Below are positions 22,905 to 51,654 of a stretch of DNA of 64,000 nt, in pieces (the stretch's first letter is position 1; every line of letters starts with the position of its first letter). The translations under genes and the position numbers were made by a program. The notes below the pieces were generated by a model that was not told the origin of the DNA, searched no databases, and worked only from the letters and a program-made list of their open reading frames with translations. This DNA comes from Thermoplasmata archaeon (GTDB lineage Archaea; Thermoplasmatota; Thermoplasmata; Sysuiplasmatales; Sysuiplasmataceae): positions 12,836 to 76,835 of the forward strand of contig JAJZXY010000001.1 in the NCBI GenBank assembly GCA_021806165.1, in the 5' to 3' direction.

Positions 22905-23618
22905 ATGAGTTGCATGCCAGCAAGAAACACTAGGGCCGGGTACCAGGACGCCTTCTGGAGCAGCCAGTACAGCACCGACCCTGAATTCTTCGGCCGGGTC
23001 GAGAGCCCGTTTTCCCACTGGGCGATGCGCCTGATGAAGCGCGACGGTGTTTCCAGCGCTCTGGAGCTCGGATTCGGATACGGCAGGGATACCGGCTACC
23101 TGCTCGCTTCGGGCATAAGCGTGACGGGCGTGGAGGTTTCGTCAAGGGGGTATGAACTGGCGGCCGAGCGGTTCAGAGGCGTTCCAGGCGTGAGGCTCCA
23201 CCATTCTGATGCTCTGTCCTTCCTGCGCTCCATGGCCGGCGCCAGCATGGACGCAGTCTATTCAAACCTGTTCTTCAACATGCATTTCACCAGGGCAGAA
23301 CACAGGGCGCTTATGCTCGAGATAGAGAGGGTCCTGTCTGAAGGAGGACTCAATCTCTTCTCCGCCAGATCGACGAATGACCCATGGTACGGGAAGGGCA
23401 GGCAAGTCGGACCAGGCACGTTCGACCATTCACCGCAGGGGACGACCATGGTCTACTTCAGCGCCAGGCTTGTTAAAGGCATAACGCCCCCTGGGCTGAA
23501 GACTATCCTCCTGGAGGAGAGGACCGAAGGTGAGGGCGACTTCCCGATATCTGTCCTGTATGTCTGCCAGAAGAGGTCGGCTGTACGCGGGAATGCTGTG
23601 CCTACTCCCCTTCCCTGA
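22905..23618 (+). CDS. class I SAM-dependent methyltransferase
   Basis: Motif I is LELGFGYGRD and the Rossmann-fold spacing is conserved. Confidence 0.7.
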   Translation: MSCMPARNTRAGYQDAFWSSQYSTDPEFFGRVESPFSHWAMRLMKRDGVSSALELGFGYGRDTGYLLASGISVTGVEVSSRGYELAAERFRGVPGVRLHHSDALSFLRSMAGASMDAVYSNLFFNMHFTRAEHRALMLEIERVLSEGGLNLFSARSTNDPWYGKGRQVGPGTFDHSPQGTTMVYFSARLVKGITPPGLKTILLEERTEGEGDFPISVLYVCQKRSAVRGNAVPTPLP

Positions 23619-23649
23619 CCTCGTTTGTCCCGTCTGGAATGAGGCCGTG

Positions 23650-23790
23650 GGAGTCACTGTGCGCCTCGTTGGCGCCTCCCTGTCCTGCGCCTCTGAAAGG
23701 CAGAAGATGGCACCTTTCCTTTCATCCACCCAGTACTTGAGGAATCTGGCGCCGTGCTTGTGCTGCACCTTCAGATCCTCGGCGTGGGCG
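23650..23790 (-). pseudogene. DUF4242-like gene remnant (internal fragment only)
   Basis: The minus-strand translation AHAEDLKVQHKHGARFLKYWVDERKGAIFCLSEAQDREA matches the central block of DUF4242 proteins. It is bounded upstream by a stop and downstream runs antisense into the methyltransferase gene. Confidence 0.3.
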
Positions 23791-23973
23791 CGGCGACGTC
23801 CTCAAGGGTGGCCCTATTCAGATTCTTGTGCACATCGATGTACCTGGGCATAAGGGAGTGAATTCCCGATCGGGGTTAAGATTGTATTTCCATGGTCTCT
23901 CAGTACGGGCGGTGATTGTATCACCCTGTAGGTCGCCCAATGATTTGCACCTGCCCTGCAGGTATGAAATAGG

Positions 23974-24882
23974 ATGAACCCTGTACACGGCGATGCATCC
24001 CGGAACAGGGGAATGGTTCAGTTGAAGCTGGTAAATTACATCTCAGGCGGATCGGGGCACTGCGGACTTGTTGCACCAGAGGGAGTGAGGGAAGTGCACA
24101 TAGGTGGAAGCGATGGCCCGCTTTCTCCCTCCTCTGCGGCCATCCTGCACGGCATTGTTACAGGAAAGCGCGGTATCGGCGAAATGGAATATCCGGCAGC
24201 CCCTCCTGTGGATGAGACGTCGCTCAAGCTTCTTCCATGCATCACAAACCCGGGAAGGGTTCTCTGCGTAGGCCTGAACTACAGGCGGCATGCCGCCGAG
24301 TCAGGCATGCCTGTGCCCGAATTCCCTGTGGTGTTCGGCAAATTCTCAGACTGCGTTGCTGCAAGCGGCGACCCCGTGCCAATTCCGCCGGGTTCATCCA
24401 TGGTCGATTATGAGGCCGAGCTGGGCATCATGATCGGCAGTGACGCTTTCCGTGTGCCGGAACAGGATGCACTGGACAGTGTACTTGGCTACTTCTGTGC
24501 GAATGATGTGTCGGCAAGGGATTTTCAGCTCAGGACTAGCCAGTGGCTGCTCGGCAAGACGTGCGAGAACTTCTGCCCCGTCGGACCGTACATGGTGACG
24601 GCTGACGAAGTCCCGGACCCAGACAGCCTCCGCATAGGCGCATCTCTTAACGGACGTCCAGTCCAGGATTCCAGCACTGGTGACATGATATTCTCCTGCG
24701 CCTCCATAGTCAGCTTCATCTCCGGCCACATCAGGCTGCATCCAGGTGATATCATACTTACCGGGACACCCGAGGGTGTCATACTGGGAAAGCCTGAAGG
24801 GGAGAGGGCATGGCTCAGGCATGGCGACAGCGTATCTGTCACCATCGAGGGACTGGGCACGCTCTCCAATGAATTTGTGTGA
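23974..24882 (+). CDS. fumarylacetoacetate hydrolase (FAH) family protein (2-keto-4-pentenoate hydratase / oxaloacetate decarboxylase-like)
   Basis: VLCVGLNYRRHAAE and DYEAELGIMIG are FAH-family signatures. The start may instead be M14 (about 24013). Confidence 0.8.
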   Translation: MNPVHGDASRNRGMVQLKLVNYISGGSGHCGLVAPEGVREVHIGGSDGPLSPSSAAILHGIVTGKRGIGEMEYPAAPPVDETSLKLLPCITNPGRVLCVGLNYRRHAAESGMPVPEFPVVFGKFSDCVAASGDPVPIPPGSSMVDYEAELGIMIGSDAFRVPEQDALDSVLGYFCANDVSARDFQLRTSQWLLGKTCENFCPVGPYMVTADEVPDPDSLRIGASLNGRPVQDSSTGDMIFSCASIVSFISGHIRLHPGDIILTGTPEGVILGKPEGERAWLRHGDSVSVTIEGLGTLSNEFV

Positions 24883-24883
24883 C

Positions 24884-26776
24884 TCAGCTGCCCCTGGTAG
24901 ACAGGCGGTAATACACCAACGTCCCGTTCCTCGCAGTCAGTGAGTTGTTGACGGCAGCTTCCTTCAGGTAGTAGACTGTTGTCTCTCCTCCGGCTGTTGC
25001 AACGTCCTTCACCACCTTGGTCGTGTATGCATGGTTGTAGGAAAGGCTGCTTATCGAATTCTCGGGTGTCAGCGTCCCCACGAACAGGCCGTTGCCTTCG
25101 ACCTTTGTGTAGCTCCTGTTGTAAGAGTTCATGACTGAAGAGCCATGCTGCGTGTTCGTGTGCATCTTGACGCTCGTTGTGATGAGCCTAACCTGCGTCA
25201 CATTGAAGCCAATGACAATCTGGATAGGATTCGTCAGTATGACATCCTCAATTGCAGTGCCGTTTATCCTGTAGTAAGCATGGATCTTTGCAAGTGCGGT
25301 GGTTGTTGTTCCTTGAGACTTGAATGCACTGTAGTAGGTTGAATTGATGAACTCCCTCAGCGAGAATGTCTGTGAGTACACCAGCCCGGTCCCGTAAGGT
25401 GTGTTTGCTACTATGTTGAAACTCGGGTCATATTCGCTCGAATTGGCAAAGAACGCCACGCTCTGGGTATAGTAGGAGCTCATGCTCGTGGACCCGGCAG
25501 TCGACATTCCGAACGAATGCTGGAACTCCCTGACAGTCTGGCTGTCATTCAGGTAGGCAGCGCTGGCGGGAATGCTCTCTGTTGCCGTGTTTGTCTGAGG
25601 CGTCTGCACGTAGCTGCTGGAATAGCTGAACGTGTTGCTTTCCACCTGCCCGGCAACTGCACCGCCTGTGGTGTTGACCATGAAGTTCAGTGCCACCCTG
25701 ATCCAGAGGTTTTCATCATTGACAACCTGTATTGTGACACTCTGCTTCCCATGCAGGAGTGAGAGGTAGGGGTCGAGCGATATCCTGTGCGGAGGATAGA
25801 GCACTGCGCCAATACCCAGTACGGGCTGCCACAGGAAGAGGTCACCGCCTCCAGTCTGCACATTCGGGTAGGGCTGCACTGTTGCAACGAGCGTGCCGCC
25901 TATGAACACCCTGAACTCCCTGAAGGGGGGCTGCAGCGTATACCAGAATTCGTCATTTCCGTTCTGCTGCTCATAGAGGTTCATGTAGGCGTTCTTGACG
26001 CCGGTGGGGAACTGCACGGCTGTTGTCCGCGAGACGTTGAAGGGTATGGGCACATTGTTGGGGAAAGCATTGGAGGGGGTGGGGAAGTTTGTGGAGTTGA
26101 ACGCGGGTATTACCTGGCTGGGGAACTGTGCCGCAGGACCCTTCATTGTGAATGTGAACCATACAGAGAGGTAGGACGAGTATCCGGGGTTGAACTGGGG
26201 GCAGGTGGTGAACACGCTCTGCTGCCCTGTCAGTATGCTGGCGTACTGCGTCACGTTCTCAGTCACGCTGGTGTTCTCAAGCTCAACCGTGTTACCGGCA
26301 AGTATCTGGACATTGCTGACTGAGACAATGAAGCTTGTATCGAATGGGTTGGACACATACTGGTCAAAGAATGTGACAGTTATTGCAGAGAACCGCCCTG
26401 TGGGGAAGTCTACCTGCCTGGTTACGGATGACGTTGTGGTATGCGAGACAAAGAAGCTGTCCACTGCAACAACCACAGTCTTTCCACCGCCGCTCTGGGG
26501 TATGGGCGGCGCCATACTGCCCCTGACAGGATTGTCGCGGGCAAGGTTGCTTATCCTGCCCGCGTGAAAAGAGCTCCCCTGGGACACTGCCGCCTGAGCG
26601 GATAGGTCGGATATGCTCCCTGAGGATGCATAGGGTGTGGCCGAGGCTGCGGGCCCGGCTGCTGTCGAAACGCCTGCCGAAAGCGTTCCGGATAGCATAA
26701 GCACGGCAACTGCAACGGCAAAAGGCACAAGCAACTTACCAGTTCTGGATGGACCATTTACATCTGACAATTTCAT
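24884..26776 (-). CDS. large secreted surface glycoprotein (S-layer/cell-surface-like), very sequon-rich
   Basis: It has an N-terminal signal/TM (LLVPFAVAVAVLMLSGTLSA) and about 630 aa of Ser/Thr/Asn-rich beta-type sequence with dozens of N-x-S/T sequons. No enzymatic motifs were found. Confidence 0.5.
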   Translation of the reverse strand: MKLSDVNGPSRTGKLLVPFAVAVAVLMLSGTLSAGVSTAAGPAASATPYASSGSISDLSAQAAVSQGSSFHAGRISNLARDNPVRGSMAPPIPQSGGGKTVVVAVDSFFVSHTTTSSVTRQVDFPTGRFSAITVTFFDQYVSNPFDTSFIVSVSNVQILAGNTVELENTSVTENVTQYASILTGQQSVFTTCPQFNPGYSSYLSVWFTFTMKGPAAQFPSQVIPAFNSTNFPTPSNAFPNNVPIPFNVSRTTAVQFPTGVKNAYMNLYEQQNGNDEFWYTLQPPFREFRVFIGGTLVATVQPYPNVQTGGGDLFLWQPVLGIGAVLYPPHRISLDPYLSLLHGKQSVTIQVVNDENLWIRVALNFMVNTTGGAVAGQVESNTFSYSSSYVQTPQTNTATESIPASAAYLNDSQTVREFQHSFGMSTAGSTSMSSYYTQSVAFFANSSEYDPSFNIVANTPYGTGLVYSQTFSLREFINSTYYSAFKSQGTTTTALAKIHAYYRINGTAIEDVILTNPIQIVIGFNVTQVRLITTSVKMHTNTQHGSSVMNSYNRSYTKVEGNGLFVGTLTPENSISSLSYNHAYTTKVVKDVATAGGETTVYYLKEAAVNNSLTARNGTLVYYRLSTRGS

Positions 26777-26876
26777 ACCCCCTCTATAGTCAATGATGAC
26801 AAGTCTGCTATTCTAAACGAGTCTGCAAAGAGGTCCATGAAATAAAAAGATATCGTATTTCGGCGCACGGCCAACG

Positions 26877-27185
26877 TCATACCGCCAGCGGAGCTGTATG
26901 CCGTGCGGTGCCGGCCCTCTCTACGCGGAGGGGCCGGAGGTTCAGTTCATCCCAACCCCTCCAGGAGCCTCCCGGTCCCAGGAGGACCCACATCGGCCCT
27001 GTTGTCAGCCCGGCGACAATAAGGGAGGCGGCGGTCACTATCAGATTCTGGAAGAGGTTGAACCCGGCAGACCAGTAGAGGGCATAAAACATGATGAATA
27101 TGCACACGCCATTATGCCCAGTATCGAAACTGCCACGGTGCTGCGGGTCCTTCGTATCGCCTAAGGCTCTTCCTCCCCTTCTCAC
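26877..27185 (-). CDS. small hypothetical membrane protein (2 TM)
   Basis: An ORF in the gap between the glycoprotein and TspO has two hydrophobic helices (VCIFIMFYALYWSAGF, LIVTAASLIVAGLTTGPMWVLLG). No homology was recognised. Confidence 0.25.
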   Translation of the reverse strand: MRRGGRALGDTKDPQHRGSFDTGHNGVCIFIMFYALYWSAGFNLFQNLIVTAASLIVAGLTTGPMWVLLGPGGSWRGWDELNLRPLRVERAGTARHTAPLAV

Positions 27186-27354
27186 CCCAGAATGTTGTCG
27201 CTTCCTGCACCGGCTCCTTTGCAGCGGTGCCGCTTTCAGCTGTCATTTCTTTCGGGATTCTACTCCACCGGGAGATGAATAAGTGTTGCCTCCATAGCCG
27301 GCTTTCAACAGTTACCCGGAGGGATGCCGGGCATGTCACATCCTCCTTCACAGC

Positions 27355-27838
27355 CTAGGGGTTGAGCCGCACTATTGGAAGGTTGAGCAGCGTGGCGGCT
27401 GTAACCCATGCTATGTATGCAAGCAGCAGGTACCCCGCGCTCCTGTCTATCTCCCTGAATTCCACTATGGTTGCTGCGATGAAGAACCAGAGGAATATGA
27501 TTTCCACAAATCCGGACAGCAGCTCATGCAGGCCGAAGAATATCACTGACCAGAGAACATTCAGGAACAGCTGTATGCCGAAGAGGCCAGAGCAGTTCCG
27601 CCCCACTGGGATTTCCCCTGCCTGTCCATGCCATGTAAATGGCCGGGCCCTTGAGAAATTACAGTGATATCCACATGGGCACGAAGAGCCGGTTTGGAGG
27701 TGTAATCGGGCTCCCGACCAGACCCGCATACCATGAGCCGATCTCGCTGAAGGTGAATATCGATCCGATACCGCCTGCCCCTTCGGTGGTCGCAATGCAT
27801 GCAGCGAGCCTCCACCAGCTTATCCTTCCAATCACCAC
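27355..27838 (-). pseudogene. tspO: TspO/MBR (tryptophan-rich sensory protein) gene disrupted by an in-frame TAA and a frameshift
   Basis: The N-terminal half (GRISWWRLAACIATTEGAGGIGSIFTFSEIGSWYAGLVGSPITPPNRLFVPMWISL*FLKGPAIYMAWTGRGN) is in one frame and contains a TAA at about 27659-27661 where TspO has a conserved Tyr. The C-terminal half (LFGIQLFLNVLWSVIFFGL...LLLAYIAWVTAATLLN) is in the -1 frame after a G-run near 27597-27610. Confidence 0.55.
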
Positions 27839-28032
27839 ATCTGTCTGAAAACCAGTCTATCCCGGAGATGCGGAGTACCCTGCCCAATCAATAGATTATC
27901 CATATTACTGTAAGTATCAAGCTGTCCTCAGACCAGACCCGTGGCATGGGCTACGATGGCTGTCCAGCCGCAGGTCAACATAGTTGACAAGATTTTTATA
28001 AATTCAAGCTTATCTGTGCGTCGTGGTTCATT

Positions 28033-28503
28033 ATGGCACAAGGGAGCGCGCCCTACCAGGCGCCGATGCCTTACGGCGGCCAGTCGGGAGTCAAGTATTG
28101 CGAGAGCTGTGGAACTACAAATGACCTTCAGGCCGCCTACTGCACAAAGTGCGGCGGTGCGGTATTCAGGACCCAGCCTGCTGGAATGCCAGTTTCAAAA
28201 CCAGCTGGAGTAATCATCATCGGAATACTGGAAATCATATTCGCAGCCCTGGCGATACTCTCCGGCCTTTCATTCAGCCTCCTACTGCCTTTCGGCGCTG
28301 TTTTCAGCCTCGTCATAGCCGCCATCGGTGTCATACTCATGATTGCTGCAATTTCACTCTTCTCCGGGCACAACTGGGCGCGCATATTCAACATAGTCAT
28401 CGCCGCCATATCACTTATTGCCTTCCCGGTAGGTACGATAATCGGCGTCATTGTCCTGGTTTACCTCACCCGTCCTCATGTGGTTGCATACTTCAGGACG
28501 TGA
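28033..28503 (+). CDS. zinc-ribbon membrane protein (N-terminal CxxC...CxxC plus 4 TM)
   Basis: CESCGTT...CTKCGG forms a zinc ribbon and is followed by four hydrophobic helices. Confidence 0.5.
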   Translation: MAQGSAPYQAPMPYGGQSGVKYCESCGTTNDLQAAYCTKCGGAVFRTQPAGMPVSKPAGVIIIGILEIIFAALAILSGLSFSLLLPFGAVFSLVIAAIGVILMIAAISLFSGHNWARIFNIVIAAISLIAFPVGTIIGVIVLVYLTRPHVVAYFRT

Positions 28504-28676
28504 AACCGGCCCCGGGCAATCATCACACCAAGCCGCCCCGGCCGTGACCGAATCGTAAAGATGAAACGGCTTCTGTGTGTCATGCCTGGGTTAACTGCTC
28601 TGGCTTGACTCCCCTCTGCGACTTTTCTCGGAGCTAGCCGTAAATACCCGTTACAAAATCCCTTGAAAGGATAGCT

Positions 28677-30344
28677 ATGGCCGATGAAATAAACGTCCTC
28701 TACGTAGACGATGACGTTTACCTTCATGAGCCCTTCAAGATATTCCTGGAGCTCACCGGGGGCATGAGCGTTACCGCAGTTTCAAGCCCTCTGAAAGCGA
28801 TAAGCCTTCTGGATGGAACCGCGTATGATGCCATCGTATCCGACTACCAGATGCCTGAAATGGACGGCATAACATTCCTCAAGACAATCAAGGGAAGGGG
28901 AAACGACCTGCCTTTCGTCCTTTTCACCGGGAGGGGGAGGGAGGAGGTGGTGATTGAGGCGCTGAACGAGGGCGCTGATCACTATCTGCAGAAGGGCGGA
29001 GATCCGCAGTCTCAGTTTGCAATGCTTGTCCATATGCTGAGATTGAGCGTGGAGACACGAACGCAGAGGCAGGCGCTCAATGTACTGAGAAAGAGGCTTG
29101 AGTCGTTCATCAACAACACTTCGGACGCCATATCGATTTTCGACGCCGACGGGAAGGTCCTGACTGTCAATCCTGCATTCGAACGCATGTACGGATGGAC
29201 GGCCGGTGAACTCAGCGGGAACATGCCTCTCCAGATTCCGGGTGATGATGCCGACAGGGTCAGGCGCATAGCAGACCAGGTGGCCAGCACCAGGGAGGCT
29301 GCACACTATTCCAGCACCCGCCAGAGAAAGGACGGGAGCAGGATCGAGGCCGACATCACGCTGTCTGCCATCACCGATGACGAAGGGAGGGTGACCGGTT
29401 TCGCATCCATCTCCAAGGACATCACCGAACTTGTTGAAGTGATGAACGCGATAACAAGCATCAAGGAGGAGTTCAGGGTCATACTGGGCACGATTGGCGA
29501 TGCTGTCATCTCCACCGACGACAGGGGCATTGTGAGGTATCTCAATCCGACAGCCGAAAGGATGCTAGACATCACGCTCGACGAGGCAGTGGGGCAGGAT
29601 ATCAATAAAATTGTAAACCTTGTGAATGAGGGTTCGAGAAGGAAGGTTGAAATACCCTCGGAGAGGGTGATCAGGGATGGGCGCATGGCAGGCCTCGCCA
29701 ACCACGCGGTAATCATATCCGGTAGCGGAAAGGAGTTCTTTGTCTCCGACCTGGCAGCCCCGCTGAGGGATGAGGCGGGGAGACTGATGGGAACAGTTGT
29801 TGTATTCAGGGATATTACAAGCGAGAAGCTCTCCGAGAGGAGGGCATCAGCTATCAACTCCGCCACCAGGCTGCTGTTCCATGCCTCCGGTCTTAACGAG
29901 ACCATGAACAAGGTTCTCACTTCAATATGCACGGAACTGCGCTTCGATGCAGGCATCATCTGGGGCGTGGACATTTCCAGGGAGAGGCTGACCCTACTTG
30001 CAAGGTGGGCCTCTGGGACCATGAAATTCAACAATTCAGAGCATTACATAAGTGAGAAGGCATTCATGCCTGGAGAGGACCTTCCAGGCATGGTCTGGAG
30101 GGGTGCCAACACAATACTTCTGGCAGACACAGGCAATCAGGGGGATGACGGACTGGCGTCCCTGCTGCGCAGGGACGGCATCGCCTCGGTTTACGCCCTT
30201 CCCATATTCGACGAGGATGCTCTCGTGCGCGGAGTTCTTCTTCTCGCCGGCAGGCTGAAGAACGAGCTCGACTCCAGGACGCTCTCGACGCTCCATGACA
30301 TAGGCATCCTGGCCGGGCAGTTCATGGCACGCCACGAGAACTGA
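28677..30344 (+). CDS. response regulator receiver protein with PAS-PAS-GAF sensor domains (no kinase or DNA-binding output)
   Basis: The CheY-like REC domain (VLYVDDD..., phospho-Asp region VSDYQMPEMDG, LFTGRG) is followed by two PAS-like modules (TSDAISIFDADGKVLTVNPAFERMYGW; GDAVISTDDRGIVRYLNP) and a C-terminal GAF-like domain. Confidence 0.8.
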   Translation: MADEINVLYVDDDVYLHEPFKIFLELTGGMSVTAVSSPLKAISLLDGTAYDAIVSDYQMPEMDGITFLKTIKGRGNDLPFVLFTGRGREEVVIEALNEGADHYLQKGGDPQSQFAMLVHMLRLSVETRTQRQALNVLRKRLESFINNTSDAISIFDADGKVLTVNPAFERMYGWTAGELSGNMPLQIPGDDADRVRRIADQVASTREAAHYSSTRQRKDGSRIEADITLSAITDDEGRVTGFASISKDITELVEVMNAITSIKEEFRVILGTIGDAVISTDDRGIVRYLNPTAERMLDITLDEAVGQDINKIVNLVNEGSRRKVEIPSERVIRDGRMAGLANHAVIISGSGKEFFVSDLAAPLRDEAGRLMGTVVVFRDITSEKLSERRASAINSATRLLFHASGLNETMNKVLTSICTELRFDAGIIWGVDISRERLTLLARWASGTMKFNNSEHYISEKAFMPGEDLPGMVWRGANTILLADTGNQGDDGLASLLRRDGIASVYALPIFDEDALVRGVLLLAGRLKNELDSRTLSTLHDIGILAGQFMARHEN

Positions 30345-30686
30345 AAAACTCTCCCGCCCGCTCGCGTCGATGGGATAGAGGAGGGCATCTTCCATGCTGG
30401 CTGAAGTGAACCTGAGGTCTGTATCAGGCATGAATGCCTGCGATCCTGCCTCATTCTATGCACCCGGTTCCGATCCTATGGATGTGAACCGGCCATATGC
30501 TCCATCCCCGGGACTGCATTGTGTTCAGCGACATCCCACTCCTACAGTTCGGTCTTATGGCCGAAAACACGCGCGACACACGTTCTACGGGGAGCAGCTC
30601 AGTAAGGCCGCTGCCGCACCAGCCTGAATTTCAGGCCGCACAGCGGATAAATAGCCGCACCCCCTTCGCGTGGACGTGGTCTGAAA

Positions 30687-30983
30687 ATGCACTATCTCGT
30701 CTTCTACAACTTTGTTGACGGCTATCTTGAAAAGCGCGGCCCCTTCAGAAGAGCGCATCTTGAGATGGTCAGGGAATACGCCGACAATGGTTCACTCCTC
30801 CTTGCAGGAGCTCTAGCAGACCCCGCAGACAGCGCTGTCCTGGTCTTCAGGGGGCCGACGGAGGAGTCTGCAGAGTCGTTCGTGAAGAATGATCCGTACG
30901 TTATCAACGGTCTGGTGACTTCTTGGCATATGCGCAAGTGGATGACAGTGGTGGGTGACGGCGCTCCCTTCCCGAGCCTCTGA
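30687..30983 (+). CDS. YciI-like protein
   Basis: It is 98 aa, and MHYLVFYNF...RRAHLEM...LLLAGALADP matches the YciI/Dabb-fold family pattern. Confidence 0.6.
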   Translation: MHYLVFYNFVDGYLEKRGPFRRAHLEMVREYADNGSLLLAGALADPADSAVLVFRGPTEESAESFVKNDPYVINGLVTSWHMRKWMTVVGDGAPFPSL

Positions 30984-31099
30984 TTTATTCAGATATCTGT
31001 GCCCCCTCCAGTGCAAACCATGCAATGGTGCAGAACAGGGCCGCATAGTGTGCAGCGACTCCCGGAGACTCCAGGCTGGCATTCAGCAGTGGGGATGTG

Positions 31100-31960
31100 T
31101 ACAGCTCAGCTGTTGCGTGTATCCCCGGGGGTTATGTTCCCTATCTTGTAGAATTTCACCGCGGACGAGGGATGTACGATGCTCTGGACAACAGGTGCAC
31201 CAGGGCTCTCTGTACCTGTCGATACAGGGAGGCCCGAAACCAGGGGGTTCCCCGCGCCTGCCCCCGCTATGCAGCCCGACTGGCCTTTGCCCGGGAGCAG
31301 CGAAAGCACTCGGGACTGGCCGAAGAAGAGTGAAACAACGGACGAGACTGCGTCATCGCTATGCACACCACAAAGGCGCCGCGGGGGCCGCTATCAGCTA
31401 ACTCCTGGCGGCAGAGCCTATTGCAAGGACGACAGAGACCCACACGGCAGTGCTCATAAGGCGCCTGCAAGGAGCGCAGGCGTAAGGTAGAGCCTCTCGT
31501 GCGGGCCGTATGTCATCGTCCCTCCTACTACATCAGCCAGTATCAGCACCGTGTAAGCAGGCACTAGCGTAATCAGCGCAGCTGAAAGCTTTGCGAGGAA
31601 GACCTCGGTCCCGGAAACTGGCTTTGTCAGGAGGGACACTATGCTTCCGCTCTCAAACTCGCCTGAAATGCTGTTCATGACAGCGACAGGAGCAAAGAAG
31701 AAAAAGAAGAGGGACAGGTTCGCCGAGTTTATCACGTGGTCCGGGCTCGCTGCCACCGCCCCCGAACGTAGTTTGAAAGGATGGGTGTCAGCGCCAGCAG
31801 GAGTATGCTCAGCCCCAGAGCTGCCAGCAGCATTGCAAGGAACTTTTTCTTCCTCAGGTTCCAGAGCAGCCCGTACCTGAAAACAGTGCCCACGCGCATC
31901 GGCATGCCGCCTGAATGCACCTCCGCCCGGGCGGTCAACGGTCATTCCCCCTTCCCGCAC
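31100..31960 (-). pseudogene. ABC-2 type transporter permease gene, fragmented across frames
   Basis: The N-terminal piece MRVGTVFRYGLLWNLRKKKFLAMLLAALGLSILLLALTPIL is in one frame. The conserved block NSISGEFESGSIVSLLTKPVSGTEVFLAKLSAALITLVPAYTVLILADVVGG is in another frame and is preceded by non-homologous read-through. A poly-purine/T-run (FFFFF, about 31690-31712) lies at the junction. Confidence 0.4.
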
Positions 31961-31986
31961 CCCCGACGAGCCTTACGAATATGCCT

Positions 31987-32687
31987 TCAGGCCCACTGCC
32001 CCTCGTGTTCATTCCCAGTATCAAGCCTCCATGGCCCGTGATTTCCCTGGAGGCGATTGGCCTGATGTCTTCGCTGGCGCATGGTGGCATGGCCGCACAC
32101 CTGCTCCACCTCGTTGAGAAGGTGCGATGACATGTATATTGTCATACCCTCGCGGGCCATCCCTTTCACAAGGTCCCTGACCTCCACCATGCCGGTAGTG
32201 TCAGGCCCCTGGCTCGTTTCGTCAAGTATTACCGTCTCAGGATCATTCAGAAGGGCCTGCGCAATGGCGAGCCTCTGCTGCATCCCCCTGCTCTATTTCC
32301 CGATCAGCTCCCGCTCCCTGCCTGCAAGACCAACCATCCGCAGGAGTTCAGGTATCTGCTCCTTTCTCTGCCCCCCACTCATACCGCAGATCCTGCCATA
32401 AATGTCAAGGATTCGTATGCCTTCAGATGCTTTGGAAACTTTGGCAGCTCAGGCATGTAACCCACCCTGAGCCTTGTTTATGGCCTGTCAACGCCAGCAT
32501 CCATTCCCAGCATCACGACCGTCCCGCCATCGGCCCGGAGCAGCCCGACAAGCACCTTGATAGTGGTAGTCTTCCCCGCCTGGTTGGGTCCGAGGAAGCT
32601 GTGCTCAGTTCCCCTCTAGACCGTGATACTCAGACTGTCAACCGAGGTCAGGCTGCCGTACCTCTTGGTCAGATTCCTGACTTCCAT
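31987..32687 (-). pseudogene. ABC transporter ATP-binding protein gene with multiple in-frame stops and a 3' frameshift
   Basis: The minus-strand translation is MEVRNLTKRYGSLTSVDSLSITV*RGTEHSFLGPNQAGKTTTIKVLVGLLRADGGTVVMLGMDAGVDRP*TRLRVGYMPELPKF...GSAV*...SGGMQQRLAIAQALLNDPETVILDE...SSHLLNEVEQVC. At least four stops (TAG, TAA, TGA, TGA) interrupt an otherwise collinear ABC ATPase. The Walker A is degenerate (GPNQAGKT). Confidence 0.6.
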
Positions 32688-32797
32688 GGCGTAATCCATT
32701 ATGACATGACAAACGGTTTTTACGATGCGGTGTGCGGATTAACGTTGGGTCTATACTCCCCTCATCCCGGCACGGGGGGCGTGTGTGGTGCAGGCAG

Positions 32798-33886
32798 TCA
32801 GATGCTTGTGAACTTCCTGGGCCCCGATGAAAAGTCGAACGCCTCAAGCAGTGGGTTGGCAGCCGCATCCCTGCCGGTCAGCGGTGTGAGGCCGTACCTG
32901 CTTTCTATGAACCTGAGTATGGACGTGTGGTCATTCACTGTGCTGTCCACCATTCCCTTCCTTGCATACGGGGATATGACAAGGCATGGAACCCTGAACC
33001 CGTAACCGTATTCATCCACCCGGGGTGGAGGGACATGGTCGTAGAAGCCGCCATAATCATCCCACGTCACAAATATTGCACACCTGTCCCAGTAGGGGCT
33101 GGCGCCCACGCTGTTTACTATGCTGTCCGCAACAGAGTCCTGCCCTTCGGCAACGTTCTTTGGGGGGTGCTCGTCCCCTCCAGGGGCACCGATCACCCAT
33201 GACACCTGCGGCAGCCTGCCGGCCGCCACATCCTTTGCAAATTCCTGGGCGGGGGCGAATCTGCCGCGAAGGCCAGCCTTCCTGATGTAGGAGAAGCTCT
33301 CGTACCATTTCGTAAAGCCGTATACCTTCCACGTTATGCCGGAGCTGTCAAGCTGTTCGAAAACAGGAGGGAAATCAATGACTTCGGGAACATTGTCGTC
33401 TTTCAGCCCTCCCGCAGTTCCTGCGACAAGGTAGAGGTGGTTCGGGGCGCTTTCGCTCATCACCGATGTGAAATACCTGTCGCACAGGACATATTCGCGC
33501 GCGGCGGCCCAGTAGCGCGGCAGGTCGGTGCCGTCAAAATAGCACATAGTCTGCGCGCTTCCCTCTGAGTAGATGAAACCGTCCATCCTGCCGCCGTCAT
33601 AGTCGGCGTGGGCGGCATTCCAGTTGTGGCTCATGTCCCTCGGCGTCAGCGTGCTGCTGTGGAAGGGTGCCCCGCACTCCGCCGATCCCTTTGCCAGGGG
33701 CAGGCATATGCTGCCGGATAATCCGTCCGCGCCGGGAAAGGCGCCGAAATAGTTGTCGAATGTATGGTTCTCCTGCAGCACCACGACTGTCCTGTCGATG
33801 TGTGACTGCCCGTCTGCGGCCGCCGAAGCCGCTGAATTCACAGCCGCCCTTCCCCCGGCAGAAACCCTCCCGGATGCGGAAGCCAT
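32798..33886 (-). CDS. phosphoesterase family protein (phospholipase C / acid phosphatase AcpA family)
   Basis: [15 protein letters not shown] is the hallmark N-terminal motif of the PLC/AcpA phosphoesterase family. An Ala/Ser-rich signal-like N-terminus is present. Confidence 0.7.
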
Positions 33887-33931
33887 CCCACTGATATTGG
33901 TCGGGCTGCCTATATTATATCATCGTCTTCC

Positions 33932-35050
33932 GTGTCACAGGAAATGGTGCGGGCATTCGGAGCAGCCTTCCTCTTCTCCAACAGCGCTGCCATCCTGACC
34001 TACGCCTTCTCTTCAAACGAAAGGAGCATGGCTTTTGGCATAAACCAGGTGTCAACTGTTGTCGGATGGGTTACAGGCCTGATCCTCGGCGGCTTCCTAA
34101 CAACCCTTCTTGGATGGCGTTCCATATTCTGGGTCAACATACTGATAGGCATATTCGCCACAGTCTGGTCCCACTACAGGCTCAGGGAGATGGCCGAGCT
34201 CGAAGGCAGGTCCGGAATAGATTTCAGCGGCAACATAGCATTCGCAGGCAGCCTGTCCCTGCGGCTCCTTGGTGTCACAGCCTATTCCCTTGGCGCCCTC
34301 GCAGCAGAAACATCCTCCATAATGATGACAGGAGGGGGCGCCATGCTCCTTCTCTTCTTCCTGCTTGAAAAGAGGGTGAAGCACCCCATGTTTAACCTTA
34401 CACTGTTCAGGATAGGGCTGCTCATGGCAGGCAATCTTGCAATCTTCCTCAATGCGCTCTCGCGCGGCGCAGTCACCCTCGCGCTCGCCTTCTAACTGCA
34501 GGGGCCAAGCATGAGACTGGGCCCTTTGCAGGCAGGCATATTCCTGATACCCATCTCCGCGTCACTTGTCGCCTTCGGACCTGTGAGCGGCATACTATCG
34601 GACCGTTTCGGCGCAAGGTGGATTTCCACCGTCTGCCCTGTTGTCTCATCCGCCGGTTTCCTCGACCTGACACTGACCCTGGGAAGGACCATAACGTTCC
34701 CGGCCATTTCGCCGGCACTGGAGCTTGTCGGCAGCGGCACGGGCATATTCGCATCCCCGAACAGGTCATCCATCATGAATTCCGTCCCGGCCATCAGGCG
34801 CGGCATCGCGTCGGGAGTCAGCACAGCGCTGTTCAATGTGGGCATGACGTCCATCATGGGCCCTGCATTCCTCATAATGACAAGGACCACGCCGCTTCCC
34901 GTGCTTGAGCAGATATTCGTGAGTGCAACCCCCTCAGGCAGCTTCTCCTTCCTGGATTTCATCAATTCCATCGACCTTGTGCTCTATCAGTCAACTGCCT
35001 TCCTGCTGGTGGCAATCATCCCGTCCATCCTGAGGGATAGGGGGAGGTAA
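33932..35050 (+). pseudogene. MFS transporter (DHA2/EmrB-like) gene, 5'-truncated and interrupted by one in-frame TAA
   Basis: Translation begins inside the transporter (GWRSIFWVNILIG is the TM5 region), so TM1-4 are absent; the convergent phosphoesterase gene ends only 45 bp upstream. A TAA at 34493-34495 splits ...TLALAF*LQGPSMRLGPLQAGIFLIP... within a single reading frame. Confidence 0.6.
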
Positions 35051-40003: not shown

Positions 40004-40024
40004 AACTGTTTTCGCTTCACCGCG

Positions 40025-45072: not shown

Positions 45073-45930
45073 ATGAAGGAAACTGCAGAGCAGTCACAGG
45101 TTCGCGATCCGCCCGACAGGCATGACGGAAGGCTGAAGTTCCAGAAGATACTGGTTCCGACAGACTCCAGGGAGACGGCCGAGCTCACCATTCCGCTCGC
45201 CAAGCGGCTCCTCTATGCCGGGGGGGAGATAGTGACTCTCAACATAATCGACACCACTTTCCCGCTTGAGGTCATCGACAAGTGGAAGAAGAGCACAAGG
45301 ATATCGATAGCAGCGGTGGAGGCGGGCTACAGGCACGAGGTGACTGTGACACCCGAGGTGAAGAATGCACGCTCAATCGTCAACTGCATTCTGGAGGAGA
45401 TATCCATCCGGGACATAGGGCTTCTCATGTTTGTAATCAATCCACACGAGGGAAAGAGGAGCTTCAGGTTCGGGAGCAAGACAAGGAGCCTTGCGCGCAG
45501 CGCAACCTGCAGCGTCCTGATGCTCAACAAGCTGACGCTCGGCATGCATCGCAGGCCGGGGGGAAAGATGCTCGTTGCGATAAAGGGCGACGACGAGGGG
45601 AGGGAGGTTCTCAGCCTCGCGAAGACGCTCTCGGACGAGCTCGGCGGCCTGCCGATAATACAGTACAGGATGCCGGACGGCAAGAAGGTGAGGAAGAGGG
45701 CCGAGGGCCAGCAGGGGGCTGGAGAGTACAGGACGTTTGCCAAGGTCTACTACGGGAGCAAGGTGGCAGACGCGATACTCGGCGAGCTGGCGAAGGACAG
45801 GTACTCACTGGTCCTCATATCGTCCAACATATCCAGGTCAGCCCTCCCATTCTATTCCGGCGGTGCGTTCGAGTTCCTTATGAAGAACGCTCCATGCCCC
45901 GTGATGATATACAGGAAGGTCGTCAGCTGA
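45073..45930 (+). CDS. tandem universal stress protein (two UspA domains), KdpQ-like accessory gene of the kdp operon
   Basis: It has two USP-like halves (FQKILVPTDSRETAE...; KMLVAIKGDDEGREV...ISSNISRS...) and sits directly downstream of kdpC on the same strand. Confidence 0.7.
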   Translation: MKETAEQSQVRDPPDRHDGRLKFQKILVPTDSRETAELTIPLAKRLLYAGGEIVTLNIIDTTFPLEVIDKWKKSTRISIAAVEAGYRHEVTVTPEVKNARSIVNCILEEISIRDIGLLMFVINPHEGKRSFRFGSKTRSLARSATCSVLMLNKLTLGMHRRPGGKMLVAIKGDDEGREVLSLAKTLSDELGGLPIIQYRMPDGKKVRKRAEGQQGAGEYRTFAKVYYGSKVADAILGELAKDRYSLVLISSNISRSALPFYSGGAFEFLMKNAPCPVMIYRKVVS

Positions 45931-47524
45931 AGGCCCGCGACAGCGCATCGTCGACGGAGTAGACAAGCTTCCCTCCTACAACGGTGGCGGCCACGCCGGG
46001 CGGGGTTGTCATTCCGGTCGAGGGCGTACCTGCAAGGAAGACCATGTCTGCCGCCGCACCAGGCTCGAGCATTCCAAGCACACCCTCCTCGCCGTCTGCA
46101 GCCGCGGCAGCGGAGGTGTACATTTTCAGTGCATCGTCAAGTCCCACTGCCTCTCCCCCGGTCAGGCCTGCCATCGGTGACCCGTCGTGCCCTCCCCTGT
46201 CCATGGCGGCAATTATGCCCGTCCACGGGTCAAGGGGCTCGACGGGCGCGTCGCTGGAGCCGGCCAACACAAGGCCGTCCTCAAGCATGGAGAGGAACAT
46301 GTAGCAGTCCCTGCACCTTTCACCGAGCCTTGCAGGCAGCCACCAGTCGCTGACAAGGAAATGCGGCTGCACAACAATTACAGGTCTCTGGCCCCTGAGC
46401 ATTTCCCTGACAGGACCGGGAGTCAGAGCAGCGTGCTCCAGCCTGAATCCCGTAACGCCGGGTCCCGCCGCCCTTGCGCTCCTGAGGGCCGCCATCACAC
46501 CTTCATCTCCAATCGCATGCACTGCAGCCTGCAGGCCACTCTCCGCCGCCTTCCTGATCAGCGCCTCCATTTCCTTCTCCTCCGTCAGGCGAAGGCCGCG
46601 TGTATCCATGTCGCTGTAGGATGAGGAGAGGAGAGCGGTCCGCGCACCGAATGCCCCGTCGGCAAAAAGCTTGATGCCGCATATGCGCACCATCCCGCCT
46701 TTTTCCCCGCGTTCCATCCTTCCCGCACCTGACTCGAATGCTTCCCTGGACAGGAAGAATCTCACCCTGCACCTGAGCAGTCCCTCCCTCTCAAGTGCCT
46801 TCACCGCCCTTATCTCGTCAATGTCGGCATTGACGGCCGTCAGAGTTGTGAGTCCTCGCGTCACTGCATAGTCGGCGGCCGCCTTCACCGCGCTTCCGAT
46901 CAGCGGCCGCACCAGCTTCTCCTCAAGCGGCGCAATGTGCAGCTTCACGGCGTTGTCGTAGAAGAGTCCGTCCGGATTCCCGGCATCATCCCTGCCAATC
47001 ATGCCCCCGGGCGGATCCGGCGTCCCTGCATCCACGCCGGCCATTTCCAGCACCCTGGAATTGACCACCGCCACATGAGTGCAGAACCTGTAGAGTATCA
47101 TAGGGCGGTGCGCTTCCGCCCTGTCAAGATCTGCTGCCGAAGGGTATCTGCGCTCCTTGAAGAGCTCCTGGTCCCAGCCGGACGAAACGGCGAAACCATG
47201 CTCTGCAGCCATGGCCGCACCCCTTCCTGCCATTTCCGAAATGCTGCCGCTCCCCCTCAGGTCATGTGAGATGATGCCAAGCCCGGTGGCGGAGAGGTGC
47301 ATGTGCGCATCTATCAGCCCGGGGATTACAGGCCCGCCGCTGTATTCCACCCTGCGCGGGCAGCTGAACCTCTTCTCGGCCTCACCGGCGTCTCCCGCAA
47401 AGAGTATCTTACCCCCGCCTGCAACGACAGCACCAACCTCCCTGGTGCCAGTCATAATCCTCCCTGCGACCAGCAGGTCCGCCCCGATGCCCCCTGGCTT
47501 CGATTCAGTACCTGTCATACTCAA
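45923..47524 (-). CDS. amidohydrolase family protein (metal-dependent amidohydrolase 3)
   Basis: LLVAGRIMTG...PGLIDAHMHL is the metal-binding HxH region, and the protein is a large amidohydrolase-3-type. Confidence 0.75.
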   Translation of the reverse strand: MSMTGTESKPGGIGADLLVAGRIMTGTREVGAVVAGGGKILFAGDAGEAEKRFSCPRRVEYSGGPVIPGLIDAHMHLSATGLGIISHDLRGSGSISEMAGRGAAMAAEHGFAVSSGWDQELFKERRYPSAADLDRAEAHRPMILYRFCTHVAVVNSRVLEMAGVDAGTPDPPGGMIGRDDAGNPDGLFYDNAVKLHIAPLEEKLVRPLIGSAVKAAADYAVTRGLTTLTAVNADIDEIRAVKALEREGLLRCRVRFFLSREAFESGAGRMERGEKGGMVRICGIKLFADGAFGARTALLSSSYSDMDTRGLRLTEEKEMEALIRKAAESGLQAAVHAIGDEGVMAALRSARAAGPGVTGFRLEHAALTPGPVREMLRGQRPVIVVQPHFLVSDWWLPARLGERCRDCYMFLSMLEDGLVLAGSSDAPVEPLDPWTGIIAAMDRGGHDGSPMAGLTGGEAVGLDDALKMYTSAAAAADGEEGVLGMLEPGAAADMVFLAGTPSTGMTTPPGVAATVVGGKLVYSVDDALSRAFS

Positions 47525-48564: not shown

Positions 48565-49173
48565 TCACGGGTAGGGTATGAGACCGTTCATCGAGAATTC
48601 CTTCCTTAGTCTGTCGGCCGAGGTGAACAGAATCGACTGTATCCCCCTCTCGCCTGCCGCCCTGACGTTATCCCTCCTGTCATCCACGAAAAGTGTGTCA
48701 CTGGCTGGCACGCCCGCCCTCTTCAGCGCTATGTCAAAGAAGGCCGGGTCGGGCTTGGCGACCGAATAGGCGTACGAGAGGACCGCATCGTCGAAGAGTG
48801 CGTCCATCCCCCTCCTGCCTGAAATGATGTTCCAGGTGTATTCCGGCATGTTGCTCAGGGCTATGATGCGGATTCCGTTCCTCCTCCTCACATCTGAGAG
48901 GAGGGAGCAGACATCCTCCCTGAGCATCAGGCTTGTCTCGTGCATGGACTCGAAATCACCGAATGAGAGGGGGATCTGCAGGGATGCGATGACATTGGCA
49001 TGGAAGCGCCTGAAGTCATTCCTTCCGAGATCCAGGTCCACCGCCTCCTCTGTCAGCACGGAGAGCGAGCGCTTCTCCGGCACACCGAACCTCTTCTTCA
49101 GCGCTGCAGCCATCACCCTGTAGGGGTTGTCACAGCAGACACCCCCGATGTCGGCGAAAATCACCCTCTTCAT
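48565..49173 (-). CDS. HAD-superfamily hydrolase
   Basis: Motif I is FADIGGV, motif II is IIALSN, and a lysine plus DD motif III (LFVDDRRDN) are present. Confidence 0.6.
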   Translation of the reverse strand: MKRVIFADIGGVCCDNPYRVMAAALKKRFGVPEKRSLSVLTEEAVDLDLGRNDFRRFHANVIASLQIPLSFGDFESMHETSLMLREDVCSLLSDVRRRNGIRIIALSNMPEYTWNIISGRRGMDALFDDAVLSYAYSVAKPDPAFFDIALKRAGVPASDTLFVDDRRDNVRAAGERGIQSILFTSADRLRKEFSMNGLIPYP

Positions 49174-49321
49174 CTATTCAGCTCCGGGCACTCCTGAAAT
49201 TCAAGATTGATTGCACAGATATTACCTTCATCTTTCGCTTATAAGCCGGTTTGCAGCATTTTCCTCAAAGCGATATTCAACCGGGAAGCTTGAAATATTT
49301 TCCTACTGGCTTTTTGATTCC

Positions 49322-49810
49322 ATGGCAAATGCCCACCGGATTCTCAGCGACCTGTACAGGGGGGAATCCGAGACGCTCAACGGCTTTGCCGCCGGCCTCT
49401 CCCTTCTTGCCCTTTCAATCACTGTTTCATTCGTGCCTGTGTCAAAGCTGCCTCCCGTCCCCTTCCTGCAGCTGCTCCTTGGCAACTATGCCCTGATGGT
49501 CGCATCTGGGATGTCAGCAGGATGCATACTGCTCGTCCGTTCCACGCTCTCATACTCCGGGGAGAGGATGCACCCCATGATGCTATTCGCCCTCGCAGCA
49601 CTCGCGTCCGCTGCTGCATCGTATGCGGCGGCAGGTTACGCAGCCGGTTACTACAGCGGCGCTGTCAGCGCCTCCCCGCTCAACCCCTCGGTAATGCTTG
49701 CCATAGCCCTTTCCGGCGCCTCCATCTTCGTGATGGCGCACACTGCAAGGGTGCTGTTTATCCACAGGTTCTCCTCTCCTGCGCCTGCAGCAGCGGAGCA
49801 GAGAAGCTGA
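49322..49810 (+). CDS. hypothetical membrane protein (about 5 TM)
   Basis: It is an Ala/Ser-rich polytopic membrane ORF. The start was chosen at MANAHRIL inside the longer track ORF 49211..49810. Confidence 0.3.
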   Translation: MANAHRILSDLYRGESETLNGFAAGLSLLALSITVSFVPVSKLPPVPFLQLLLGNYALMVASGMSAGCILLVRSTLSYSGERMHPMMLFALAALASAAASYAAAGYAAGYYSGAVSASPLNPSVMLAIALSGASIFVMAHTARVLFIHRFSSPAPAAAEQRS

Positions 49811-49861
49811 GCGGGCCGACAGCTTTATTCTGCATGCATCCAGTCCGGTACCCGGGACATT

Positions 49862-50467
49862 TTGACAAAACGATGGATGAAGGAGAGGAAGAACGACAGG
49901 TACTATGTCAAGGCAAAGCGCGAACACTACAGGAGCAGGGCCGCATACAAGCTCCTCCAGCTCCAGGAGAAATTCGGCATACTGTTCGCGGGCATGAGAT
50001 GTGTTGATCTCGGTGCAGCCCCGGGCGGTTGGCTGCAGGTTGAACAGGAGATCGCAGGACCCGGGGGAAGGGTGCTTGGCATAGACCTGGCGACCATAAG
50101 ACCGGTAGAGGGCGTTACACTCCTGAAGGGGGATGTGACCTCGCCCGCAACAGCTGCGAAGTTGCTGGATGCGGCTGGAGGGAAGGTGGATGTGCTGCTC
50201 TCAGACATGTCACCCGACATAAGCGGCAACTACTCTCTCGACCATGCCAGATCCGTTGACCTTGTCAGGACCGCCCTCGCTCTTGCCCGGCTGCTCCTGA
50301 AGGAAGGGGGCAGCATGGCCGTCAAGCTCTTCGACGGCGAGCTGACGCACGAACTGCTGGAGGATATGAAGCGCTCCTTCGGGAGCGTGAGGGTTTCGAA
50401 GCCCGAGGCCAGCCGGAAGCAGAGCTCCGAGATCTACATAGTGGCCGGGGATTTTTTCAGCCGCTGA
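49862..50467 (+). CDS. rlmE: 23S rRNA (uridine-2'-O)-methyltransferase RlmE/FtsJ (RrmJ)
   Basis: YRSRAAYKLLQLQEKFGI...VDLGAAPGGWLQV...VLSDMSP match the FtsJ family. Confidence 0.9.
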   Translation: MTKRWMKERKNDRYYVKAKREHYRSRAAYKLLQLQEKFGILFAGMRCVDLGAAPGGWLQVEQEIAGPGGRVLGIDLATIRPVEGVTLLKGDVTSPATAAKLLDAAGGKVDVLLSDMSPDISGNYSLDHARSVDLVRTALALARLLLKEGGSMAVKLFDGELTHELLEDMKRSFGSVRVSKPEASRKQSSEIYIVAGDFFSR

Positions 50468-50749
50468 GGCACAGCCCGAAAGCGGCTTCCCCTGCGGCAG
50501 CCGCAAACCCCATGCCGAACTGCGTAAGCCTGCCGGGTCTGTCAAAATCCAAGCAGGTGCGGTCGCTCCTTTCGGCTATGCGCAGGTAGCCGCGCGCCCT
50601 TTCTACATCCGCACCCGGTCCCGGCGAGGCAATGGCATCCCTTGCACGGTCAGTCAGCCTCCACATACTGTTCTTCGCCTCGCTCCCCTCCCAGGTTGGG
50701 AACGAATGGTCATGCGCCCAGCTCGTCTCGCATATGTGCCCAGCCGCCC

Positions 50750-51626
50750 GCTCTAAACCACGCGGGAGGCTTCGCCGAGCGTGGCGGTCCTCAGCCCCGA
50801 GCTTCCAGCGAGCGGGCGGCAGAGTGCCGATAGGTGGTCCGCACCGTTCATCCAGTTTTCGCCGTCAGGCGCGATAACCACGCAGCGGAGCCCCCTCCTG
50901 TCCGCCAGCATTGACAGCATCTCCCTTTCCATGACCCGGGCTTCTCCATGGGCGGGGAGAGTGAAAATGCATTTGAAATCCAATTGTCCCTGAATAACAG
51001 GAGCGGCCCTCCCCGAAGCTTGAATGGCATGCCTCCGCCCTCCCCCGCGGAGAGCGCACTTCCGTCAAGGACGGTGTAACTGAACCAGGCCTTTCCGGCC
51101 GCGGCGGCTGCATCGGACGAGAATGCGTACTCGGGGGACCACAATTCAGCCACATTCCTTCCGCCGTAGCCAGCTGTCTCCTCCATCCCTGCCTTCAGCT
51201 GCCGGGCCAGGTCGTCAGCAAGACCATGCCTGGCTAGAAGGGGCATTATGCGATGATAGTGAAGCTGGGAAATTATCCCGATGTTGCAGCCGTTGTCTCC
51301 CTGTATCCCCTGAGCAGGCGGGAGCTGTTTTCCGCCTGCTCATCCACATCCACATTCTCAATCCCGGGCCCAACGGAATACCCGCGTGGGGCTGCGACCT
51401 GCCAATGCCTGAGGAGCGTCGGGCTCAGGTTGTAATTGGCTCTGTAGTGCACATTACTCGTTATGGTGTCGAGATGCCTCTTGTAGTTGCGGGCATTGTC
51501 GAAAAGCGAGCTGAACTGGAAGCATCCGTCCCTGTCGATATACCATGGCTGGTGGTGATGGAACACCACCGAGACGAGCATCCCGTCCATTTTATCCGCC
51601 GGTATAAAAAAATTCAGGAAGTACAT
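50750..51626 (-). pseudogene. glycoside hydrolase family 57 gene broken by frameshifts
   Basis: The N-terminal 117 aa (LVSVVFHHHQPWYIDRDG...ANYNLSPTLL) are in one frame. The nucleophile-region piece (NVAELWSPEYAFS...FSYTVLDG) is in a second frame starting before 51246. Further fragments lie in a third frame (50753..50983). The 3' boundary is uncertain. Confidence 0.5.
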
Positions 51627-51654
51627 AGCGTTTGGTCAGCAGATGCGCAAACAG

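Follow-up and report, generated by a model that had tools for sequence, protein, structure and literature searches.

Eight pseudogenes are packed at six places between 23.6 and 51.6 kb of a 64,000-nucleotide stretch of Thermoplasmata DNA, the whole of which is referred to here as the window. They derive from a DUF4242 nickel-binding protein, a TspO-type sensor and a 101-residue membrane protein beside it, the ATPase and permease of an ABC-2 type exporter, an efflux pump of the major facilitator superfamily (MFS), a cytidine deaminase, and a small GH57 glycoside hydrolase (Table 1). It is very probable that all eight loci are true pseudogenes, produced by lineage-specific decay of dispensable, vertically inherited genes. 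A first-pass annotation, made from the letters of the window, had listed six disrupted genes at an unusual density. Three-frame translations, codon listings, and Pfam scans recovered all six at or near its coordinates, and the density not only exceeds chance but rises with the count from six genes to eight.

Within the flagged 28 kb, 8 of 28 gene-like sequences (29%) are broken, compared with 0 of ~50 in 56 kb of flanking DNA; the survey thus covers 84 kb of a 225-kb contig. Among ~45 genes of the syntenic region in the sister species, none is broken (Fisher p = 2e-4 against 8 of 28). Most prokaryotes carry 1–5% pseudogenes, and the families that yield them most often include ABC and MFS transporters (Liu, Harrison, Kunin & Gerstein 2004, Genome Biol 5:R64; PMC522871). 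At a 5% background, the probability of eight or more broken genes is 5e-5 among the 28 and 0.04 over all 78 genes surveyed, of which 10% are broken (8/78). The chance that eight random genes among 78 land inside one 28-gene span is 0.002, or 0.013 when operon partners are merged into six events. The map of open reading frames (ORFs) gives the same picture, with long ORFs tightly packed at 1–23.6 kb and 52–64 kb and several shattered zones between.

Table 1. Disrupted genes in the window (positions are those of the window).
Feature	Position	Strand	Lesions
DUF4242 / SCO4226-like nickel-binding protein pseudogene	23602-23851	-	full length (83 codons), two 1-bp deletions
101-aa hypothetical membrane protein pseudogene beside TspO	26942-27246	-	three frame lesions relative to sister contig
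TspO/MBR (tryptophan-rich sensory protein) pseudogene	27349-27886	-	stop and deletions
ABC-2 type exporter permease pseudogene	30985-31938	-	four or more frame changes plus one or more in-frame stops
ABC-2 (DrrA/GldA-like) ATPase pseudogene	31935-32699	-	stops, frame changes, deletion, motif damage
DHA2-family (EmrB-like) MFS efflux transporter pseudogene	33941-35050	+	5' deletion and internal stop
Cytidine deaminase	40025-40447	-	one premature TAA (40319-40321), polymorphic within species
Small GH57 glycoside hydrolase pseudogene	50457-51581	-	three frame changes (~51300, ~50935, ~50735)

Archaeosine TGT, PTH2, NucS, and an intein-bearing EF-2 mark the gene content of the region as archaeal, and the nearest genomes in a species-representative collection are Thermoplasmata metagenome-assembled genomes (MAGs). 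Three tiers of relatives were compared. The first is the sister species and best relative, ‘Candidatus Sysuiplasmataceae archaeon Bin_127’ (JBJKPR010000003.1; thiolase 83% identical), whose loci L005, L020, and L021 are collinear with the window from ~29 to 59 kb and hold intact copies of the ABC ATPase (314 aa), permease (317 aa), MFS pump (484 aa), cytidine deaminase (146 aa), and GH57 (378 aa). The second is a closer sister lineage with 91–94% nucleotide identity (contigs L102–L105 from SRR31012008, SRR31012007, and SRR31309758), in which DUF4242 (83 aa), TspO (179 aa), and the 101-residue gene beside TspO are intact and have the gene context seen in the window. The third is a separate conspecific strain, contig L115 from SRR7275281, which is ~0.5% divergent (99.5% nucleotide identity). 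Comparison with the orthologous loci of related genomes had been proposed at the outset, and it yielded an intact orthologue at a syntenic position, in the sister lineage or the sister species, for all eight broken genes. The names carried by these orthologues, including those from NCBIfam, are DrrA/GldA-like ABC-2 exporter, EmrB-like DHA2 pump, TspO, SCO4226-type nickel-binding protein, cytidine deaminase, and small GH57. A scan of JGI metagenomes anchored on the FAH protein gave a best match of 54% identity and no close relatives or usable orthologous loci.

The family assignments of the first-pass annotation (SCO4226-like/DUF4242, TspO_MBR, ABC_tran, dCMP_cyt_deam_1, MFS_1, and GH57) are borne out by frame-joined translations, which show Pfam homology over most of their length to PF14026, PF03073, PF00005, PF00383, and PF07690 (positions 96–343 of 347). 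A six-frame Pfam scan of four larger gaps (16.66–17.05, 26.76–27.37, 30.33–30.70, and 53.14–53.79 kb) found no further remnants. One such Pfam-empty gap still held the frameshifted 101-residue gene, which belongs to no Pfam family and was seen only via the sister contig. The phosphoesterase gene at 32798–33886 was considered as a ninth, 5'-truncated gene, given that the longest L005 ORF exceeds it by 39 aa. It was not counted as broken; the additional N-terminus in L005 lacks conservation and probably reflects an ORF extended too far, and the gene in the window has an ATG of its own.

DUF4242 had been described as a remnant. It is instead a full-length gene whose two deletions lie at ~23791 (GCCGCCGCC to GCCG-CGCC) and ~23666 (GGG to GG). 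The frame-corrected translation matches PF14026 at positions 1–71 of 76 and is 82% identical to the intact 83-aa orthologue P0127, which stands in contigs L104 and L105 of the sister lineage in the same context as in the window (FAH / DUF4242 / methyltransferase). The nucleotide alignment to that lineage has 93.5–94% identity with exactly two 1-bp gaps, and the broken sequence is identical in contigs L114–L117.

The TspO gene had been reported to carry an in-frame TAA and one frameshift. The TAA stands (TAC to TAA at 27659–27661), whereas the single frameshift resolves into two 1-bp deletions, at ~27613 and ~27586. A third 1-bp deletion (C5 to C4) probably lies ~10 nt before the ancestral stop, to judge from the alignment. 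With frames joined, the product matches PF03073 at positions 2–143 of 145 and is 83% identical to the intact 179-aa P0007, located in the syntenic sister contig. The annotations of GCA_027345105.1, ENA, SRR13235777, and SRR7275281 retain only an 83-aa fragment. Downstream of TspO, sister contigs L102 and L103 carry the intact 101-residue gene. Its counterpart in the window is absent from the first-pass list and is called in none of the assemblies' annotations; nucleotide and three-frame alignments place 1-bp deletions at ~27139 and ~27106 and a 1-bp insertion at ~26955.

A broken ABC-2 ATPase and a shattered permease had been noted, and both are present, with in-frame stops and multiple frame changes that could be mapped. 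In the ATPase, aligned to the intact 314-aa orthologue in L005, stops occur at 32616–32618 (TAG; CAG in the orthologue), 32478–32480 (TAA; glycine in the orthologue), and 32293–32295 (TAG; TAC in the orthologue). These are accompanied by at least two frame changes, one near 32406–32445, and by the loss of ~150 nt (~50 codons) near 32080–32114. The reconstruction matches the Pfam family ABC_tran, yet its Walker A motif has changed from GPNGAGKT to GPNQAGKT (G to Q) and the Walker B/D-loop is degraded. The permease is annotated as fragments of 163, 93, 68, and 51 aa with weak ABC2_membrane matches. When the intact 317-aa L005 orthologue is used as a tblastn query, pieces are recovered in frames -2, -1, and -2, in addition to a stretch readable only in the third frame.

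The MFS pump had been described as lacking its N-terminal part and containing a TAA, and both features hold. Relative to the sister, ~0.46 kb is missing, which removes the promoter/upstream region and codons 1–101, and the stop at 34493–34495 (TAC to TAA) is common to all assemblies. What remains is 74% identical to residues 103–466 of the intact 484-aa L005 orthologue, and the Pfam MFS_1 match begins at profile position 96. The pseudogene contains 10 within-species single-nucleotide polymorphisms (SNPs) in 1.1 kb.

The GH57 gene is split over three frames, as first reported. Each frame change is consistent with a net -1, and a tblastn search with the intact 378-aa orthologue P0001 returns four pieces in frames -3, -2, -1, and -3. 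The sequence covers 99% of PF03065 proteins at 53% identity; two conserved motifs are degraded (YHPIMPLL to YHRIMPLL and SDYTYWDF to SDRTCLDF). In L020 and L021, P0001 lies between the peroxiredoxin and FtsJ genes, the same position as that of the broken gene in the window. The sequence is identical in the GCA_027345105.1, ENA, and SRR13235777 contigs.

The premature TAA is the sole lesion of the cytidine deaminase, in agreement with the first-pass annotation. At this site, strain L115 has TAT (Tyr), and its gene is an intact 140-aa ORF that scores above the NCBIfam cut-off for cytidine deaminases (NF005314); L020 has an intact orthologue of 146 aa. The stop is the youngest lesion and is still segregating in the species. 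The two deaminase alleles differ by 22 nonsynonymous and 6 synonymous codon differences, compared with 3 and 13, respectively, in the adjoining CoA-transferase between the same strains. Around the gene, a 1.5-kb tract (39009–40530) differs by ~4.5% between the window and L115, against ~0.25% elsewhere. It spans the cytidine deaminase with its upstream region and the 5' portion of the CoA-transferase gene, and resembles either a tract imported by recombination or a long-standing polymorphism at the deaminase. Outside this tract, SNP density between the strains is highest in non-coding DNA at 30373–30596, in the gap between the PAS response regulator and YCII genes, where 10 SNPs and one 1-bp indel fall in ~220 bp.

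The degree of decay declines from the ABC pair through GH57, TspO and its neighbour, and DUF4242 and the MFS pump to the deaminase, which is the least decayed. Lesion count provides a relative age in this order, with the ABC pair oldest and the cytidine deaminase youngest. The lesions comprise 1-bp deletions in short runs, nonsense substitutions, the 0.46-kb 5' deletion of the MFS gene, and the ~150-nt deletion in the ATPase; all of the finely mapped indels but one are deletions. Real and ongoing gene loss, as suggested in the first-pass annotation, is upheld by the recurrence of the lesions in separate assemblies and in a second strain, and by the deaminase TAA that is still polymorphic. Relaxed selection on transport and carbohydrate functions had been put forward as well; the losses comprise two efflux systems, the TspO stress sensor and its small neighbour, the nickel-binding DUF4242 protein, the cytidine deaminase, and the sugar-active GH57 enzyme.

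Selection on these eight accessory genes was probably relaxed in this uncultured Thermoplasmata lineage, and the usual prokaryotic deletion bias would now be erasing the inactivated copies, which would drift towards deletion. Such a bias is known for prokaryotic genomes, and the predominance of deletions among the finely mapped indels accords with it. The lesions most likely cluster where non-essential, rearrangement-prone genes lie, between genes that selection would have kept, namely those for cell-wall and peptide scavenging on the left and for housekeeping and translation on the right. The middle stretch is the part of the window that is rearranged relative to the sister species. Measured against the sister lineage, the ratio of nonsynonymous to synonymous substitution rates (dN/dS) is 0.42–0.44 for DUF4242 and TspO and 0.14–0.15 for well-conserved neighbours, the genes of FAH, the PAS response regulator, and a zinc-ribbon membrane protein. 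Within the species, SNPs are densest in the MFS pseudogene (~0.9%) and in non-coding DNA, over a background of ~0.25%.

Several points weigh against this account. The dN/dS values of the pseudogenes are below 1 and overlap those of two intact hypothetical genes (0.41–0.48), and relaxed selection is only partly demonstrated. For the ABC, MFS, and GH57 genes, the intact comparison is solely with the distant sister (~53–74% amino acid identity), so that the timing of their loss is loosely bracketed. Several of the assemblies may stem from related samples of one site, and only SRR7275281 is clearly a different strain. That the clustering arises from a concentration of dispensable genes is something we infer.

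Gene content in the same region differs further between the species. Four genes of the sister species, encoding a proC-like reductase, a 211-aa redoxin, and two LUD-domain (LutB/LutC-like) proteins, have left no trace in the window or its flanks; the sites compared are 35050–35683 and 52150–52200 of the window against 7837–8670 and 9234–9869 of L005 and 6642–9301 of L020. Conversely, an Amidohydro_3 gene (45923–47524) is present in the window and absent from the sister species. The four missing genes are compatible with completed deletions, the direction of change being unpolarised without an outgroup.

An unlikely but more far-reaching explanation is genome-wide reductive evolution, in which early host restriction or niche narrowing would have made the whole genome rich in pseudogenes and the window would merely sample it. 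The densities of 29% locally and 10% over 84 kb, set against the 1–5% prokaryotic background (PMC522871), the absence of broken genes from the same region of the sister species, and the four genes missing without trace all speak in its favour. However, all eight pseudogenes fall in one 28-kb stretch and none in the 56 kb of flanks. The gene lists of the 84 kb contain no insertion sequence (IS) elements and no transposase or integrase families; the GC content is steady at 0.54–0.62 throughout; the gene for the mismatch endonuclease NucS (Pfam PF01949, Endo_dU) is intact; and the many intact scavenging genes are suggestive of a free-living heterotroph. The first-pass suggestion of a reduced or host-dependent lifestyle is thus not supported on the 84 kb, where the flanks hold large intact catabolic and housekeeping sets with neither IS elements nor a drop in GC. 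It is similarly unlikely that this species, in contrast to its sisters, both the one at 91–94% nucleotide identity and those at family level, stands at the start of genome-wide reduction after a recent bottleneck or niche restriction, with a pseudogene load of at least 10% of which the 28-kb cluster would be the first sample seen. If it did, it would be one of few archaeal lineages caught mid-decay, with intact sister genomes by which to date each loss.

The left flank is of interest in its own right. Positions 1–16700 of the window and contig L106 (10 kb upstream) hold an intact set which, by Pfam names only, resembles the scavenging of bacterial cell walls (muropeptides) and peptides in an archaeon. 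It comprises MupG, AnmK, two MurQ-like SIS proteins, two GH3 (NagZ-like) proteins, an NlpC/P60 peptidase, an MR_MLE epimerase, beta-lactamase-fold proteins, glucosamine-6-P isomerase, a sulfatase, phosphodiesterase genes, and an Opp-type peptide ABC importer. On the other side, ~2 kb past the right end of the window, the EF-2 gene (L110, 11876–15034) encodes 1052 aa and includes an intein (Pfam Intein_splicing).

Failed horizontal transfer is very improbable as the source of the broken genes, which would then be recent foreign acquisitions that never became useful. A large fraction of prokaryotic pseudogenes has been suggested to arise in this way (Liu et al. 2004, PMC522871), and the region is rearranged relative to the sister species. 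All eight genes, however, have syntenic orthologues in sister lineages and were therefore inherited vertically; in addition, their GC content and GC content at third codon positions (GC3) are typical of the genome.

An assembly or consensus artefact, whereby the stops and frameshifts would be sequencing or assembly errors or products of a chimeric mixed-strain consensus, is less probable still and is effectively refuted. The source is a MAG and several lesions are 1-bp deletions, and the first-pass annotation had itself allowed for mis-assembly or a low-quality consensus. The window was compared with GCA_027345105.1 (contig DAHWIL010000019.1), ENA ERZ27237490 (contig k141_507504), SRR13235777, and SRR7275281; the ‘k141_’ names point to a short-read MEGAHIT assembly. 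GCA_027345105.1 and ERZ27237490 differ from the window by 2 SNPs over 21 kb (34482 and 34487), both within the MFS pseudogene. The SRR13235777 Logan contigs equal the window exactly over 20687–36225, including these two positions, and show a single difference (position 52950) over 48797–61442. Every comparable lesion is identical in up to four assemblies, base for base in GCA_027345105.1, ERZ27237490, and SRR13235777 and in part in the distinct strain SRR7275281. The comparison with this strain takes in all loci but GH57; it shares the lesions of DUF4242, the 101-residue gene, TspO, the ABC genes, and the MFS pump, and only its deaminase is intact. The deletions occur in runs of 1–3 bases with no long homopolymers, as expected from the first-pass view that homopolymer error was an unlikely cause, and several genes combine multiple lesions with missense changes in catalytic motifs. 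None of the ~50 genes in the 56 kb of flanks is broken, not even the long ORFs of 1052 (EF-2), 676, and 647 (TGT) aa, and systematic consensus error is therefore excluded.

Recoding, in which in-frame TAA or TAG would be read as an amino acid (e.g., Tyr) or the frameshifts would be programmed and the genes would still work, deserves the least credence of all: 4 of the 6 premature stops (those of TspO, MFS, and cytidine deaminase, and the ABC stop at 32295) do stand where the orthologue encodes Tyr, and the deaminase is without any other lesion, but TAA and TAG both serve as terminators (the stops of 70 intact genes are TGA in 56, TAG in 11, and TAA in 3), only 12 nt separate one TAA stop from the MupG start downstream of it, no intact conserved gene has an in-frame TAA, the TspO, MFS, and ABC genes carry further disabling lesions, the one tRNA gene of the window (Rfam, 61363–61460) has a non-suppressor anticodon and no suppressor tRNA is found there, and the Tyr excess is a small-number coincidence (~p = 0.02, post hoc).

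With TAA treated as a sense (Tyr) codon, the re-derived ORFs merged in two cases only, the halves of the MFS gene and the gene pair ahead of MupG; this assignment was rejected because Pfam matches MupG from profile position 1 onwards, making that TAA a true stop. The sites at 27659–27661, 32293–32295, 34493–34495, and 40319–40321 all changed from TAC or TAT to TAA or TAG, and none of the six premature stops is TGA, though TGA ends 80% of intact genes. Tyr codons account, by our estimate, for about one in five of the single-step paths to a stop, and their excess probably reflects transversions at TAY codons in a small sample. The tRNA gene itself, on the forward strand (Rfam, 98 nt, 39.5 bits), was missed by ARAGORN in its default mode; the intron mode models it as a tRNA-Leu(AAG) whose 16-nt intron is non-canonically placed, which leaves the anticodon in doubt.

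In this MAG and in the conspecific assemblies, the eight loci should be marked as pseudogenes; current annotations show either series of short ORFs labelled ‘hypothetical’ or fragments of TspO, ABC, MFS, and deaminase genes that are taken to be functional. The comparative series of sister species, sister lineage, and second strain orders the losses in time and catches the deaminase while it is still polymorphic. The region neatly illustrates how deletion bias keeps prokaryotic genomes compact, and it calls for no new mechanism.

Among known systems, phase-variable contingency loci share with the window the single-base deletions that shift the reading frame. In contrast to such loci, the deletions here lie in runs of 1–3 bases, occur several to a gene, and are invariant across strains, and hence are not reversible switches. 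Archaeal stop-codon recoding is known from another Thermoplasmata order, the Methanomassiliicoccales, in which TAG is read as pyrrolysine. It likewise places in-frame stops inside recognisable genes of a Thermoplasmata genome, but the stops described here are mostly TAA, TAA and TAG are normal terminators, the affected genes carry further frameshifts, and none of them is a member of the methylamine methyltransferase families in which pyrrolysine is used.

Host-restricted reductive genomes, such as those of Mycobacterium leprae and of recent insect endosymbionts such as Sodalis, have also lost many genes by small deletions and nonsense changes that are fixed in the lineage, while the copies in their sisters are intact. 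They differ from the 84 kb seen here, in which decay is confined to one stretch with intact flanks and there is no IS expansion, no GC drop, and no indication that repair genes were lost. The closest likeness is to ordinary prokaryotic pseudogenes (Liu et al. 2004, PMC522871), in which known families are disabled by frameshifts and stops, ABC and MFS transporters are frequent, and disablement is graded. Unlike these, the window has 8 of 28 genes broken locally as opposed to 1–5%, and all of them descend from vertical, syntenic genes rather than failed transfers. Gene decay of this type is an already known phenomenon; its packing is unusually dense here.

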